Positions 366-42,854 are shown, counted from the first letter of the stretch. The stretch: DNA of 43,460 nt from a bacterium (GCA_021817705.1 JAKAGB010000001.1:1-43460); one strand, 5' to 3'. Notes: generated from the sequence alone by a model not told the origin. A program made the numbers and translations.

Positions 366-371
366 AGTATA
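366..371 (-). promoter_or_regulatory. -10-like hexamer TATACT upstream of the membrane protein gene (leaderless-type spacing)
   Basis: Minus strand reads AG TATACT C ATG CTC ATG. Confidence 0.4.
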
Positions 372-477
372 CTCGAATCGGACGCGGCTCACGACGTGAT
401 GGATTATTTTGTGCTCCTCGTCGCTCGTGGTGTCGTCTCCGCACGCGCTCATGCGCACGTGAACGGCTCGTTCGCCG

Positions 478-508
478 CATGCGTATGCTATCTGATAGCA
501 TACGCATG
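478..508. repeat. perfect 15+15 bp palindrome with 1-nt centre (CATGCGTATGCTATC t GATAGCATACGCATG)
   Basis: Read directly. The arms 478..492 and 494..508 are exact reverse complements. It lies in the divergent intergenic region between the membrane gene and tRNA-Arg. Confidence 0.9.
493..501 (+). promoter_or_regulatory. extended -10-like TGATAGCAT, candidate tRNA-Arg promoter
   Basis: TGnTAnnnT pattern ending 18 nt before tRNA position 1. It is embedded in the right arm of the palindrome. Confidence 0.4.
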
Positions 509-518
509 TCCTCATTCC

Positions 519-590
519 GCTCTCGTCATTCAATGGATAGGATAGCTCCCTCCGAAGGAGCCAATGTCGGTTCGATTCCGACCGAGAGCA
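519..590 (+). tRNA. tRNA-Arg (anticodon CCG)
   Basis: Hand-folded cloverleaf. Acceptor GCTCTCG/CGAGAGC, D stem ATTC/GGAT, anticodon stem GCTCC/GGAGC with loop CTCCGAA, T arm GTCGG-TTCGATT-CCGAC, discriminator A. CCA is not encoded. Confidence 0.85.
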
Positions 591-594
591 CTAA

Positions 595-636
595 AACGGA
601 AGACGCGCGCCGCTTTAGCGGCGCGCGTCTTCCGTT
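595..636. terminator. 19-bp GC-rich hairpin; bidirectional terminator between tRNA-Arg and rpsT
   Basis: AACGGAAGACGCGCGCCGC ttta GCGGCGCGCGTCTTCCGTT, with A/T runs forming the stem ends. Confidence 0.75.
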
Positions 637-644
637 GTGAGGGC

Positions 645-902
645 TTACGCCGCTTTCAGCATCCGCGCGAGGCGCGCCTTCTTGCGCGACGCCGTATTCT
701 TCGAAATGACGTTGCGCTTCGCAGCCTTGTCAATCGCTTCAAAGGCGGCCGGCAGCAAGGTCGCTGCCTTCGCGTCCTTCGAGGCGACGGCCTTAGTGAA
801 CGCCTTCGTCGAATCGTAGAGCGCGGACTTGCGGCGCAGGTTGAAGACTCGCTTCTTGCGCGAGACGCGGATTGCCTTCTTTGCGGACGAGGTAATTGCC
901 AT
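645..902 (-). CDS. rpsT: 30S ribosomal protein S20
   Basis: 85-aa C-terminal part of ORF 645..1523: MAITSSAKKAIRVSRKKRVFNLRRKS...ASRKKARLARMLKAA. This is a typical S20 sequence. ATG at 902..900. Confidence 0.9.
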   Translation of the reverse strand: MAITSSAKKAIRVSRKKRVFNLRRKSALYDSTKAFTKAVASKDAKAATLLPAAFEAIDKAAKRNVISKNTASRKKARLARMLKAA

Positions 903-944
903 GTGCGACTCACCATACGGCATCGGCTGCTTTTTCGCAAGGAG

Positions 945-953
945 TGGTACGAT
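945..953 (+). promoter_or_regulatory. extended -10 TGGTACGAT, 7 nt before the ruvA ATG (leaderless-type)
   Basis: TGGTACGAT ggtgcc ATG. No SD in the gap. Confidence 0.5.
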
Positions 954-959
954 GGTGCC

Positions 960-40202: not shown

Positions 40203-40215
40203 CGAAAACCGCTGG

Positions 40216-41430
40216 TTAGCCAATCGCGGACGAAAGCTGGTAGATAGGCGCGATCATGGAAACCGCGAATATGCCGACGACGGTGCCGATGAAGAGCATG
40301 AGTATCGGCTCGATGATGGTCGAGAGGTCTTTCGTGCGTTCGGCCACGTCGCCCTCGTAGAATTCGGCAATCTCTTTGAGCATGTCGGCGGTCTTGCCAG
40401 TCTCTTCGCCCACGGCGAGCATATCGCTCATGAGGATGGGATAGAGTTTCGGGTGCGACTCGAACGCCTTCGAGAGCGGCTCGCCTTTTTTCACGAGTAT
40501 CTCCGCTTCGCGGATGACGTTCGCGAACGCGTCGGCGTGCACCACTTCGCGGGTGATGGCGAGCGCATCGAGGACCGGAACGCCCGACGTGAGCAAAGAG
40601 GCGAGCGTGCGTGCAAAGCGAGCCGCGTAGGTTTCGCGTACGAGTTCGCCAATCGCGGGCAGGTGGAGCGCCGTCCAGAGTACCGCGCGTTCGCCCATGT
40701 GCGAGCGCAGGAAGGCGTAGCCGGCAGCCACGAGCGCCACGAGCCCGAGAAGCACGAGCGCGACGTTCGCCACCATGAAATTGCTTATCCCGACGATGAT
40801 GCGCGTCGCGAGAGGAACCTTCACGCCGAGCTCGGTGAAGGTCTTCGTGAGGGTCGGCACCACGAAGATGAGCATGAGCACGCCGACGATGACGATGGCG
40901 GTGACGACGATGGAGGGATAGATCATTGCGCCTTTCACCTTGCGCGAAAGCTCCGCTGAGTGCTCCATCTGAAGCCCCACGACGGAAAGGGATTCGGAAA
41001 GCGAACCGGACTCCTCCCCCGCTTTGGCCATGGCGATGAAAAGCGGCGAGAATACGCGCGGATACGCGGCGAGCGCTTCGTTGAAGGACGAACCCTTACG
41101 CACGGCCTCATCAATGCCCTTCGCAATCGTTTTGAGACGCGGGTTCGGCGTCTGCCGCTCGATGACCGCGAGCGCCCGTGCGAGTGCGAGCCCGGCGGCG
41201 AGCATAGCGGCCATGTTCTTCGCCATCATGACTATCTCCTGCTGCTTTATGCCCGTGCCGATCGTAATATTCAGCCACGCGGGCATGCGCAACGCGCTGT
41301 CTTGCGAGAGATCCGCCACCGTGCCGCCCTCTTTCTCAATCTGTTCGTACACGGCGAACCGTGAGGGCGCATCGATGACGCGCACTTCGTCAGGCGCGCC
41401 TTCTTTTTTTATCGTCGCGCGAAATCGCAT
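40216..41430 (-). CDS. pilC: type IV pilus inner-membrane platform protein (GspF/PilC family)
   Basis: Two T2SSF repeats: LAAGLALARAL...SFNEALAAYPRVFSPLFIAMAKAGEESG and LLTSGVPVLDAL...GEPLSKAFESHPKLYPILMSDMLAVGEETG. Confidence 0.93.
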   Translation of the reverse strand: MRFRATIKKEGAPDEVRVIDAPSRFAVYEQIEKEGGTVADLSQDSALRMPAWLNITIGTGIKQQEIVMMAKNMAAMLAAGLALARALAVIERQTPNPRLKTIAKGIDEAVRKGSSFNEALAAYPRVFSPLFIAMAKAGEESGSLSESLSVVGLQMEHSAELSRKVKGAMIYPSIVVTAIVIVGVLMLIFVVPTLTKTFTELGVKVPLATRIIVGISNFMVANVALVLLGLVALVAAGYAFLRSHMGERAVLWTALHLPAIGELVRETYAARFARTLASLLTSGVPVLDALAITREVVHADAFANVIREAEILVKKGEPLSKAFESHPKLYPILMSDMLAVGEETGKTADMLKEIAEFYEGDVAERTKDLSTIIEPILMLFIGTVVGIFAVSMIAPIYQLSSAIG

Positions 41431-41438
41431 TCCTGTTC

Positions 41439-41447
41439 AGTATAGCA
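41439..41447 (-). promoter_or_regulatory. extended -10 TGCTATACT, 9 nt before the pilC ATG
   Basis: Minus strand reads TGCTATACT gaacagga ATG. Confidence 0.5.
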
Positions 41448-41450
41448 TCG

Positions 41451-41483
41451 CAAAAAGAAATCGCGCGCCCCTCAGGGCGCGCG
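41451..41483 (-). terminator. intrinsic terminator after the 112-aa membrane protein gene
   Basis: Minus strand reads CGCGCGCCC tgag GGGCGCGCG ATTTCTTTTT. Confidence 0.7.
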
Positions 41484-41492
41484 TTACGCGCA

Positions 41493-41831
41493 TTACGTTG
41501 GCAAGCACGTTGCGCGCGCGAATGCGGGCACAAGCGGTGCTTCCACGGACAGGACGGCAAGCAGGAGCGCAAGCGCCGGCAGGCCGTCGTTCGCCGAGCG
41601 TGCCGCAAGAAGCACCAGCGCTCCGGCTACCAGAAACGCGATTCCCCACGCGAGTTCGCGCGGCGCGAATACCGCCGCTGCGCCCACCGTCGCAAACACG
41701 ACTCCCAGGAAGAGGATCGTGAACGGGTCGGGGTGATACCCGCTTATACGCGCACCGATCACTATGGTGAAGTGCGCGAGTGCGTAAGCGATGGTCGCGA
41801 CCAAGAGCATGTGTAGAACTCGCATATACAT
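41493..41831 (-). CDS. hypothetical membrane protein (112 aa)
   Basis: GGGAGG lies 7 nt before ATG 41831 (inside ORF 41493..41864). Four hydrophobic helices. Confidence 0.5.
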   Translation of the reverse strand: MYMRVLHMLLVATIAYALAHFTIVIGARISGYHPDPFTILFLGVVFATVGAAAVFAPRELAWGIAFLVAGALVLLAARSANDGLPALALLLAVLSVEAPLVPAFARATCLPT

Positions 41832-41926
41832 TTTCAAGCCTCCCAACTGTTTCGGAGGCAACATACCACAGATGCAACTGTTTGCAAGTCACTCGTGGAG
41901 AAAATAATGTGCGCACTTCCCTGCGG

Positions 41927-41932
41927 TATACT
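41927..41932 (+). promoter_or_regulatory. -10 TATACT, 8 nt before ATG 41940 of xerC
   Basis: CGG TATACT catgcgc ATG. Confidence 0.45.
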
Positions 41933-41939
41933 CATGCGC

Positions 41940-42854
41940 ATGAACGCAGAAGATGCGAAGCGCCAGTTCCTCGAATATCTAGAGATAGAGCGCGGTCGAT
42001 CCGTAAAGACCATTGAGAACTACGACCGCTACCTCTCGCGTTACTTCGCGCAGATGGGCCTGAAGCGCATCGGAGACATCTCTGAGCAGAACGTGCGCGA
42101 ATTCCGCCTGTGGCTCAATCGCCAGCCCGGGACTGGAAACGACTCGATGAAGCGCCGCACCCAGAACTACTACATGATCGCGCTTCGCGCGTTCCTCAAA
42201 TTCCTGCGGAAACGTGGCATCGAATCGCTTTCGCCCGAGCGTATCGAGCTCGCCAAGCTCCCCGAGCGTGAGCTGCAGCTCATTTCGAACGCAGAACTTG
42301 CGCGCCTCATGGAAGCGCCTGCCCGCGCGCTCGCGAAGGAAAGGGACGATTGGAAACGCCTCGGGTTCCTGCGCGACAAGGCCGTGCTCGAACTCCTTTT
42401 CTCCACCGGGCTCCGCGTATCGGAACTCTGCGCGCTCGACAGCGACCTCGACCTCTCGCGCGACGACCTCTCGGTGCGCGGTAAGGGCGAGAAAGTGCGG
42501 GTCGTCTTCCTTTCGGATGCGGCAAAGGATGCGGTGCGTGAGTATCTGAAAGCGCGCAAAGACATGGAAGAAGCGCTCTTTGTGGACGGTCGCCCGAAAA
42601 AGCTCCACCGCATAATCCCTCGTGACGTGCAGCGCCACATAAAGAAGTACGCCGCCTTGGCCGGCATTACGAAGAAGGTGACGCCCCACGTCTTGCGCCA
42701 CTCGTTTGCGACCGATCTGCTCAGTAACGGTGCCGACATCCGCTCCGTGCAGCAGCTCCTTGGCCACGCCTCCATAAACACGACGCAGATCTACACCCAC
42801 GTCACCGACTCGCACCTGCGCGAAATCCACAAGAAGTACCACTCCCGCGGCTAG
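41940..42854 (+). CDS. xerC: tyrosine site-specific recombinase XerC/XerD family
   Basis: 304 aa from MNAEDAKRQFLEYLEIERGRSVKTIENYDRYL. Catalytic-region motifs GLRVSEL, HVLRHSFATDLL, LLGHASINTTQIYTHV. Confidence 0.9.
   Translation: MNAEDAKRQFLEYLEIERGRSVKTIENYDRYLSRYFAQMGLKRIGDISEQNVREFRLWLNRQPGTGNDSMKRRTQNYYMIALRAFLKFLRKRGIESLSPERIELAKLPERELQLISNAELARLMEAPARALAKERDDWKRLGFLRDKAVLELLFSTGLRVSELCALDSDLDLSRDDLSVRGKGEKVRVVFLSDAAKDAVREYLKARKDMEEALFVDGRPKKLHRIIPRDVQRHIKKYAALAGITKKVTPHVLRHSFATDLLSNGADIRSVQQLLGHASINTTQIYTHVTDSHLREIHKKYHSRG

Follow-up and report, generated by a model that had tools for sequence, protein, structure and literature searches.

Extended −10 promoters placed at start codons point to a leaderless transcriptome in a Parcubacteria-group genome whose 16S rRNA lacks an anti-Shine–Dalgarno sequence

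We analyzed a stretch of 43,460 nucleotides of bacterial DNA (GCA_021817705.1 JAKAGB010000001.1:1-43460; hereafter the window), together with the genome from which it comes, for a recurrent hexamer, TAnnnT, that is often extended to TGnTAnnnT and lies immediately upstream of start codons. The distance d between the two is defined as the position of the A of the start codon minus the position of the last T of the hexamer. Our main conclusion is that about three in ten genes have their own extended −10 promoter, set so that the message would begin at the start codon or within 3 nt of it. The initial annotation of the window had proposed widespread leaderless transcription units, and motif spacing, promoter features and conservation agree in supporting that interpretation.

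The proposed mechanism, to which we give a probability of roughly 0.85 and in which the 5′ ends and the mode of ribosome loading are predicted from sequence, is as follows. The majority of conserved genes at the head of a transcription unit, as well as many genes within same-strand clusters, would have their own TGnTAnnnT promoter without a −35 element. RNA polymerase would start at the A of the ATG (d = 7–8) or 1–3 nt before it (d = 9–10), and ribosomes would load directly onto the resulting 5′-terminal AUG without Shine–Dalgarno (SD) pairing. Genes without their own promoter mostly overlap the stop codon of the preceding gene or follow it after a gap of 1–4 nt, which suggests termination–reinitiation.

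Genome, gene set and scoring

The source is a metagenome-assembled genome (MAG) of 614 kb in 52 contigs, with 60% GC and an estimated completeness of 88%; the window corresponds to contig C5. Because its polA has its nearest matches in MAGs labelled Paceibacteria, Paceibacterota, Parcubacteria, Kaiserbacteria or Patescibacteria (45–72% identity), we assign the genome to the Parcubacteria/Paceibacteria group within the candidate phyla radiation (CPR). Genes were called with our own codon-usage caller, seeded on G at codon position 1 and iterated. For the spacing histogram, 590 starts of longest open reading frames (ORFs) were picked blind to the motif. In a second test all candidate starts near the 5′ end of an ORF were allowed, on average 3.7 per gene for 658 genes. 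The controls were mononucleotide or dinucleotide shuffles of the 30 upstream bases and six decoy distance windows.

Spacing between the box and the start codon

Far from being flat, the genome-wide spacing of TAnnnT is sharply peaked at d = 7. Among the 590 blindly picked starts the hexamer occurs 77 times at d = 7, 27 times at d = 8, 19 times at d = 9 and 26 times at d = 10, compared with about six times at any other distance, and the spacing upstream of internal in-frame ATGs is flat. When several starts per gene are allowed, 276 of the 658 genes have a box at d = 7–10, as opposed to 76–89 genes at the six decoy distances, 88 ± 9 in mononucleotide shuffles and 97 ± 10 in dinucleotide shuffles. 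Shuffled upstream regions, which the initial annotation had named as one possible refutation, reach about one-third of the observed frequency, and the excess over chance amounts to some 185 genes (28%). The extended form is more selective still: TGNTANNNT-N6-ATG is found 47 times in the genome versus two or three times at d = 16 and d = 19, and TGn-extended boxes are about 16- to 24-fold enriched over decoy spacings.

The window shows the same tendency, with a box at d = 7–10 in 26 of its 47 genes (7.2 ± 2.4 in mononucleotide and 8.5 ± 2.5 in dinucleotide shuffles; the maximum in 300 shuffles was 17). All of the approximately 22 boxes that had been cited for the window are present at d = 7–10 (Table 1). 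The accompanying claim that no SD intervenes between box and start also held, as none of the spacers has a usable one; the polA spacer, aggggag, is purine-rich yet directly adjoins the ATG. Since window shuffles already yield 7.2–8.5 boxes per 47 genes, a few of the cited cases may be chance picks, most of them being genuine.

Promoter-like features of the motif

If the sites are aligned on the hexamer (its T, A and final T are invariant by construction), T is found at −15 in 45% and G at −14 in 59% of them, and the complete TGn extension is present in 96 of 264 (36%). Position −1 is C in 50% of the sites and is followed by A at +1; the commonest hexamer is TATACT. There is no −35 element in the leaderless class, as the information content at positions −36 to −30 does not exceed 0.05 bit. 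Membership in this class depends on gene position: it includes 48% of the genes divergent from their upstream neighbour and 45–56% of the same-strand genes more than 15 nt away from it, but only 26% of tightly packed genes. The start codon of the class is ATG in 252 of 276 cases. Judged by these features, the motif appears to be an extended −10 promoter (TGnTAnnnT) without a −35 element, behaving as a promoter and not as a ribosome-binding site.

Conservation in the genus and in more distant relatives

At pilB, 14 species of the genus share an unchanged TGnTAnnAT. The distance d is 7–9 in 11 species, while in the other three the ATG is shifted to d = 17–22 and the box has not moved. Because the box is kept while its distance to the ATG changes, it fits a promoter rather than a ribosome-binding site. 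Upstream of rpmB, the TG, T, A and final T of the box, as well as the ATG, are likewise invariant in 14 species (d = 10–11), with the other bases of this divergent spacer being variable.

To extend the comparison, relatives were scored by counts at d = 7 against a decoy at d = 16. In 400 kb of a complete genome of the same genus (G015), TANNNT-N6-ATG occurs 172 versus 81 times and TGNTANNNT-N6-ATG 38 versus five times. The polA neighbourhoods of 26 other CPR genomes give 115 versus 53 and 28 versus 0, respectively, and the ORF-based spacing histogram in CPR loci also peaks at d = 7. No excess is seen in non-CPR polA loci (166 versus 202 for TANNNT-N6-ATG, 6 versus 14 for TGNTANNNT-N6-ATG). Within the order, the G024 genome, representing another family, has 36 versus 21 TANNNT-N6-ATG, and six genomes of other families taken together show a weak excess for the TGn-extended pattern (29 versus 11 for TGNTANNNT-N6-ATG). 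The leaderless spacing is therefore a clade-level trait, although it is unevenly distributed across the order.

Genes inside same-strand clusters

The gaps between neighbouring genes on the same strand are bimodal, with 25 gaps at −4, 42 at +1 to +4, 10 at 5–8 nt and 33 at 9–12 nt; in other words, gaps of 9–12 nt are over-represented and those of 5–8 nt depleted. As many as 24 of the 33 gaps of 9–12 nt contain TAnnnT at d = 7–10, and the upstream stop codon is mostly part of the box or adjoins it. In the former case a TAA or TAG stop constitutes the first half of the −10 hexamer of the next gene (TAG, then GATgagcgcATG, at comEC; TAA, then AATacttccGTG, at yidC). In the latter, exemplified by TGA-TATAGT and TGA-TACAGT, the TG of the TGA stop coincides with the TGn extension. 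The two modes of the gap distribution and the boxes in the 9–12-nt class support the existence of internal promoters, and clustered genes would thus be either coupled to the upstream gene or provided with a leaderless promoter of their own. The internal promoters proposed in the initial annotation are upheld as a genome-wide design and for comEC, whose junction fits one, but not for polA, which is considered below.

The 3′ tail of 16S rRNA

Inspection of the 16S rRNA 3′ tail revealed that the anti-SD is absent. The only 16S gene found (contig C35:11551-14198, minus strand; loci L001 and L082) is interrupted twice, by an insertion of about 800 nt after E. coli position ~1397 and by a group I intron (Rfam RF00028, 71 bits) after AAGUCGU at ~1506. 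A canonical 16S 3′ end was not found by either pattern or BLAST searches, and the true tail lies beyond the insertion and the intron. Past an intact helix 45 it reads GGAACAUAUCCGAAAUGG, the E. coli counterpart being GGAUCACCUCCUUA. The tail GGAACAUAUCC, devoid of CCUCC, is found in 12 genomes of the genus, this one and 11 others; since most of these 11 have no intron, they confirm the exon junction. CCUCC is likewise missing from the tails in six other families of the order.

A separate RNA supplying the anti-SD was considered and rejected: the CACCTCCT-like matches across the genome are coding sequence, the antisense of SD sites or a tRNA end, and no CACCUCCU-bearing RNA fragment is present elsewhere in the genome. 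Searches of 20 genus genomes detected no ribosomal protein bS21 above the Pfam cut-off, and protein S1 is short (~395 aa). Direct loading of ribosomes fits both the tail without CCUCC and the lack of a detectable bS21. As a side observation, eight of the 20 genomes have weak bS21 matches (19–26 bits) in ORFs of 89–135 aa, which may represent a very divergent S21.

Boxes and start codons in the window

The boxes of the window are listed in Table 1. The gene names of the initial annotation agree with Pfam assignments, dnaN corresponding to 15816..16916 and pilC to 40216..41430. The starts implied by the boxes match the N-termini of Pfam profiles for ruvA, tpiA, dnaN, rpmB, yebC, polA, rnhA and the superoxide dismutase (SOD) gene. 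Profile position 1 falls on residue 1 for RuvA_N, TIM and DNA_pol3_beta, on residue 3 for Ribosomal_L28 and on residue 5 for both TACO1_YebC_N and 5_3_exonuc_N; position 4 of RNase_H falls on residue 9 and position 9 of Sod_Fe_N on residue 8. In the alignment with PolA homologues, similarity begins at residue 39–41 of the long ORF, in agreement with a start at Met 37 (position 7686).

The suggestion that the box helps to choose among start codons was borne out for HIT, xerC and the LTD-domain gene, and for gene 8..358 the upstream ATG at 364 lies outside the predicted transcript. Further genes that obey the spacing rule are the prgI-like gene (d = 8), yidC (GTG, d = 7), 38061..39767 (d = 8) and 42986..43291 (d = 8). 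The box is slightly farther away in dnaA (d = 13) and ruvB (d = 22), which may be near-leaderless or short-leader cases. We also noticed that gene 8..358 and xerC have a promoter-start module in common, TATACTcATGcNcATG (366-371/358 and 41927-41932/41940, respectively), with a decoy ATG 2 nt past the box in both.

Table 1. Putative −10 boxes and SD-led modules in the window. Positions are counted from the first base of the window; 'extended' denotes boxes with TGn.
Position	Strand	Element	d	Start codon and gene	Remarks
366..371	-	-10 TATACT	8	ATG 358, GlpM-like gene 8..358	Pfam GlpM; ATG at 364 only 2 nt past box
945..953	+	extended -10 TGGTACGAT	7	ATG 960, ruvA	RuvA_N profile 1-61 = residues 1-59
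2854..2862	+	extended -10 TGCTAGAAT	8	ATG 2870, LTD-domain protein	Pfam
7694..7699	-	TACAAT	8	ATG 7686, polA	within last codons and stop of tsaE; uncertain internal promoter
8151..8156	-	-10 TAGAGT	7	ATG 8144, tsaE	Pfam
9058..9085	-	-10 TACCCT (9080-9085), cGGAA start, SD GGAG (9058-9061) 6 nt before ATG		ATG 9051, orphan	141 aa; divergent from pilB
9133..9141	+	extended -10 TGGTAGAAT	7	ATG 9148, pilB	conserved in genus
12310..12318	+	extended -10 TGGTACGCT	8	ATG 12326, yebC	TACO1_YebC_N
13651..13659	+	extended -10 TGCTACCAT	7	ATG 13666, class A penicillin-binding protein (PBP)	Pfam
16926..16931	-	-10 TATAAT	10	ATG 16916, dnaN	predicted leader 0-3 nt; DNA_pol3_beta 1-120 = residues 1-120
18932..18937	+	TAAAAT	7	GTG 18944, yidC	TAA of box = stop of upstream gene; Pfam
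22596..22601	-	-10 TATACT	7	ATG 22589, ORF 21882..22589	
23304..23309	-	-10 TATAAT	10	ATG 23294, ORF 22620..23294	
26261..26269	-	extended -10 TGCTAGAAT	8	ATG 26253, PrgI-like	Pfam
26910..26915	-	TAGACT	8	ATG 26902, M50 protease	box not conserved in genus
26923..26931	+	extended -10 TGGTAGGCT	10	ATG 26941, rpmB	predicted 5' end ACUAUG; conserved in genus
27817..27822	-	-10 TATAGT	7	ATG 27810, MBL-like protein	
27831..27839	+	extended -10 TGGTAGAGT	9	ATG 27848, Fe/Mn SOD	Pfam
29878..29883	-	TAGGAT	7	ATG 29871, comEC	TAG of box = stop of ORF 29881..30138
30145..30171	-	-10 TAGTAT (30166-30171), -35 TTGACC upstream, cGGAA start, SD GGAG (30145-30148) 6 nt before ATG		ATG 30138, orphan	85 aa
30634..30639	-	-10 TAAAAT	9	ATG 30625, rnhA	Pfam
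32547..32555	-	extended -10 TGGTATCCT	10	ATG 32537, recJ	Pfam
32647..32652	+	TACCAT	8	ATG 32660, HIT	alternative ATG 32651 inside box; Pfam
34033..34067	-	-10 TAGTTT (34062-34067), cGGAA start, SD AAAAGGAGG (GGAGG 34033-34037)		GTG 34027, orphan	130 aa
35983..35991	-	extended -10 TGGTACTAT	7	ATG 35976, tpiA	TIM 1-244 = residues 1-245
39775..39780	-	-10 TATCAT	8	ATG 39767, CarboxypepD_reg-domain protein	Pfam; not in the list of the initial annotation
41439..41447	-	extended -10 TGCTATACT	9	ATG 41430, pilC	Pfam
41839-41865	-	SD-led module			
41927..41932	+	TATACT	8	ATG 41940, xerC	Phage_int_SAM_1 position 3 = residue 9

A second class of genes led by Shine–Dalgarno motifs

The absence of an SD upstream of the genes listed with boxes does not extend to the entire gene set. 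The genome is not SD-free, as approximately 16% of its genes have AAAGGAG at canonical spacing. If the same distance is measured from the last G of GGAG, the motif occurs at d = 7, 8 and 9 in 30, 16 and 11 of the 590 starts, respectively, compared with about two elsewhere. These genes share an extended module that begins with a −35 element, TTGaca (T at −34 in 75%), followed by a 17-nt spacer, gTAnnnT, 6 nt and a predicted transcription start at cGGAA; the GGAA is followed by about 10 nt, AAAGGAG, 6 nt and the ATG. The predicted leader is about 20 nt long and the −10 box lies 26–31 nt upstream of the gene. SD-led genes, mostly poorly conserved, are shorter (median 169 versus 225 aa), have a lower GC content at third codon positions (0.72 versus 0.775) and a lower coding score. 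Neither a box nor an SD signal was recognized in 248 of 667 genes.

Three SD-led orphans of the window have no Pfam family. One of them, 8626..9051, has no nucleotide match in 19 genus genomes, and another SD-led orphan of the window has no homologue in the 19 other species of the genus. We rejected contamination as an origin of these genes, as the two classes occur together on 33 of the 52 contigs. The SD-led leaders would pair well with a canonical anti-SD (−9.35 versus −5.63 kcal/mol for shuffled leaders). Specific pairing with the genome's own 16S tail was tried and rejected (−4.4 versus −3.8 kcal/mol shuffled). AGGAG is not enriched in the complete same-genus genome G015 (13 versus 12), but it is in G018, G027 and G024 together (20 versus 4). 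On the simplest reading, SD-led genes would be recently acquired or fast-evolving cassettes that bring their own expression signals.

Two side observations concern this class. Upstream of pilB (alignment A4, approximately window 9069-9110), a near-perfect TTGACA-N16-18-TATAAT promoter facing away from pilB is retained in most species of the genus; at the same site the present genome has a weaker TTGCGC ... TACCCT, which drives the SD-led orphan 8626..9051. Contig C27 (~2880-14490) carries about eight SD-led genes in a row, including several long (359–622 aa), enzyme-like ones; one N-terminus is NAD synthetase-like as judged by eye. This run looks like a horizontally acquired island.

A more far-reaching reading would divide the whole gene set. 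Every cistron would be expressed either from a leaderless extended −10 promoter of its own, in many cases merged with the preceding stop codon, or through stop/start coupling, both independent of SD, and about 100 species-specific genes would follow a separate regime (−35/−10, 5′-GGAA, AAAGGAG) that is left unpaired by the resident 16S rRNA. We regard this generalization as tentative and rather doubtful. Were it true and the SD-led genes translated, then the SD motif would either be recognized by some other reader or serve a different purpose; were they not translated, a sixth of the gene set would be silent cargo.

Alternative explanations

Among the alternatives to a leaderless transcriptome, the one that survives best is that the boxes are real but minor promoters. 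Most transcripts would then arise by read-through or upstream initiation, and leaderless initiation would be a side route. This is in keeping with the many genes that lie in same-strand clusters with short gaps and with the coupling of polA to tsaE, without a box, in most relatives. On the other hand, first genes that are divergent or well separated have, in about half of the cases, a box at d = 7–10 and no other recognizable signal, and coupling and own-promoter spacing form separate modes in the gap distribution. Moreover, no way other than coupling is known by which ribosomes could be recruited to an internal AUG of a long transcript when the anti-SD is missing. We therefore consider minor promoters an unlikely explanation.

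Less probable still, and in our view quite improbable, is that TAnnnT is a translation signal, namely an AU-rich non-SD ribosome-binding site on leadered mRNAs, as in GeneMarkS-2 group B (Bacteroidota). Some non-SD signal might be expected given a 16S rRNA without an anti-SD, and the element does sit where a ribosome-binding site would. However, TGn at −15/−14 and C(−1)/A(+1) are promoter features, and the element seldom precedes internal genes that are tightly coupled and would need a ribosome-binding site too. Furthermore, the same box recurs 26–31 nt upstream of SD-led genes, and that of pilB is invariant even in the three species in which the ATG is 17–22 nt away. Finally, the possibility that the pattern results from AT-rich intergenic composition, from TAA/TAG near starts and from the free choice of start codons can be practically dismissed: although 3.7 candidate starts per gene do yield about 90 chance matches and the TA of some boxes does come from a stop codon, boxes are three times as frequent as in shuffles and decoys, the peak is present for starts picked blind to the motif, TGn-extended boxes are enriched 16- to 24-fold, boxes are conserved across species, and non-CPR loci show nothing in the same analysis.

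Several observations weigh against a leaderless transcriptome or limit its extent. The gene set was produced by a crude, home-made codon-usage caller. About 90 of the 276 boxes are expected by chance, which makes single genes less certain, especially at d = 9–10. Some 106 genes (~16%) carry AAAGGAG(G/A)-N6-ATG, so that the genome is not purely leaderless. Raw TANNNT-N6-ATG shows no excess in G018, G027 and G020, which represent other families. At the level of individual genes, the box of the M50 protease gene is not conserved in the genus, and that of polA is common to only one other species, G017. Since in most other species of the genus the start of polA and the stop of tsaE overlap instead (start/stop coupling), the internal promoter of polA is uncertain.

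The tsaE–polA junction itself (window 7684-7699, alignment A5) has been remodelled. Most species have TATGCCTAA, in which the polA ATG lies over the tsaE TAA, and the present genome and G017 have ggTACAATaggggag followed by ATG or GTG. Conservation of a polA promoter in other genera was examined and rejected, as it is not conserved in 25 polA loci of other Paceibacteria; in those with a clear junction, polA is mostly coupled to tsaE.

Significance and comparison with known systems

It has been published that about half of Parcubacteria have lost the anti-SD, but not what replaces SD-guided initiation. A box 7 nt from the ATG at about 30% of genes, with most of the others tightly coupled, would be a concrete and testable answer for a large uncultured radiation. 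There is also a practical consequence for annotation, as a leaderless model in gene finders should improve start calls in such MAGs; here it resolved those of ruvA, polA, HIT, xerC and LTD. Stop codons that double as part of a −10 box illustrate how each gene of a small genome may retain its own promoter. A puzzle is posed by the SD-led orphan class, given that the genome lacks an anti-SD.

The Parcubacteria subgroup without an anti-SD has been described as having rRNA and ribosomal-protein losses, and SD helices are probably not formed in it (Tsurumaki, Saito, Tomita and Kanai 2022, RNA 28:1041, PMC9297842). That study does not say how initiation works instead. The present genome resembles this subgroup in its 16S tail without CCUCC and in its Parcubacteria/Paceibacteria membership, and bS21 is often missing there. 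It differs in the promoter-adjacent starts reported here, which offer a candidate answer to the question of initiation.

In leaderless organization the closest known counterpart is group C of GeneMarkS-2, in which a Pribnow box lies 6–8 nt from the starts of first genes and 25–50% of units are leaderless (Lomsadze et al. 2018, PMC6028130). Group C consists mostly of Actinobacteria (Mycobacterium, Streptomyces, Corynebacterium) and Deinococcus-Thermus, and CPR is not mentioned (PMC6028130). The likeness covers the distance of the box, the share of units, the presence of promoter and ribosome-binding signals at the same spacing and a −35 element that is weak or missing. The remaining genes of group C genomes carry SD-type motifs. 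Here about 106 genes have AAAGGAG, a motif with which the 16S rRNA of this genome cannot pair, and 248 of 667 genes show neither signal. Actinobacteria and Deinococcus keep the anti-SD. What sets the present case apart is the CPR/Paceibacteria lineage, a 16S rRNA without an anti-SD, the prominent TGn and the many boxes placed on an upstream stop codon.

As for the promoters, extended −10 (TGn) sigma-70 promoters likewise have TG one base upstream of TAnnnT, a dispensable −35 element and a purine start about 7 nt downstream. The difference is that here such promoters are tied to one class of genes, conserved and leaderless, and that a second class, the SD-led orphans, uses −35 TTGaca plus −10. 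Archaea (GeneMarkS-2 group D) and mammalian mitochondria also read a 5′-terminal AUG without SD pairing and have reduced or absent SD use; with their different promoter type and translation machinery, the resemblance is functional only.

In full-text searches we found no literature linking leaderless genes to Patescibacteria, CPR, Parcubacteria or Saccharibacteria. As far as the sequence evidence goes, the genome described here would represent a known mechanism in a new lineage, where it is tied to the anti-SD loss already described in the literature. Compared with the systems above, its unusual features are the stop codons built into −10 boxes and the SD-led orphan class without an anti-SD partner.

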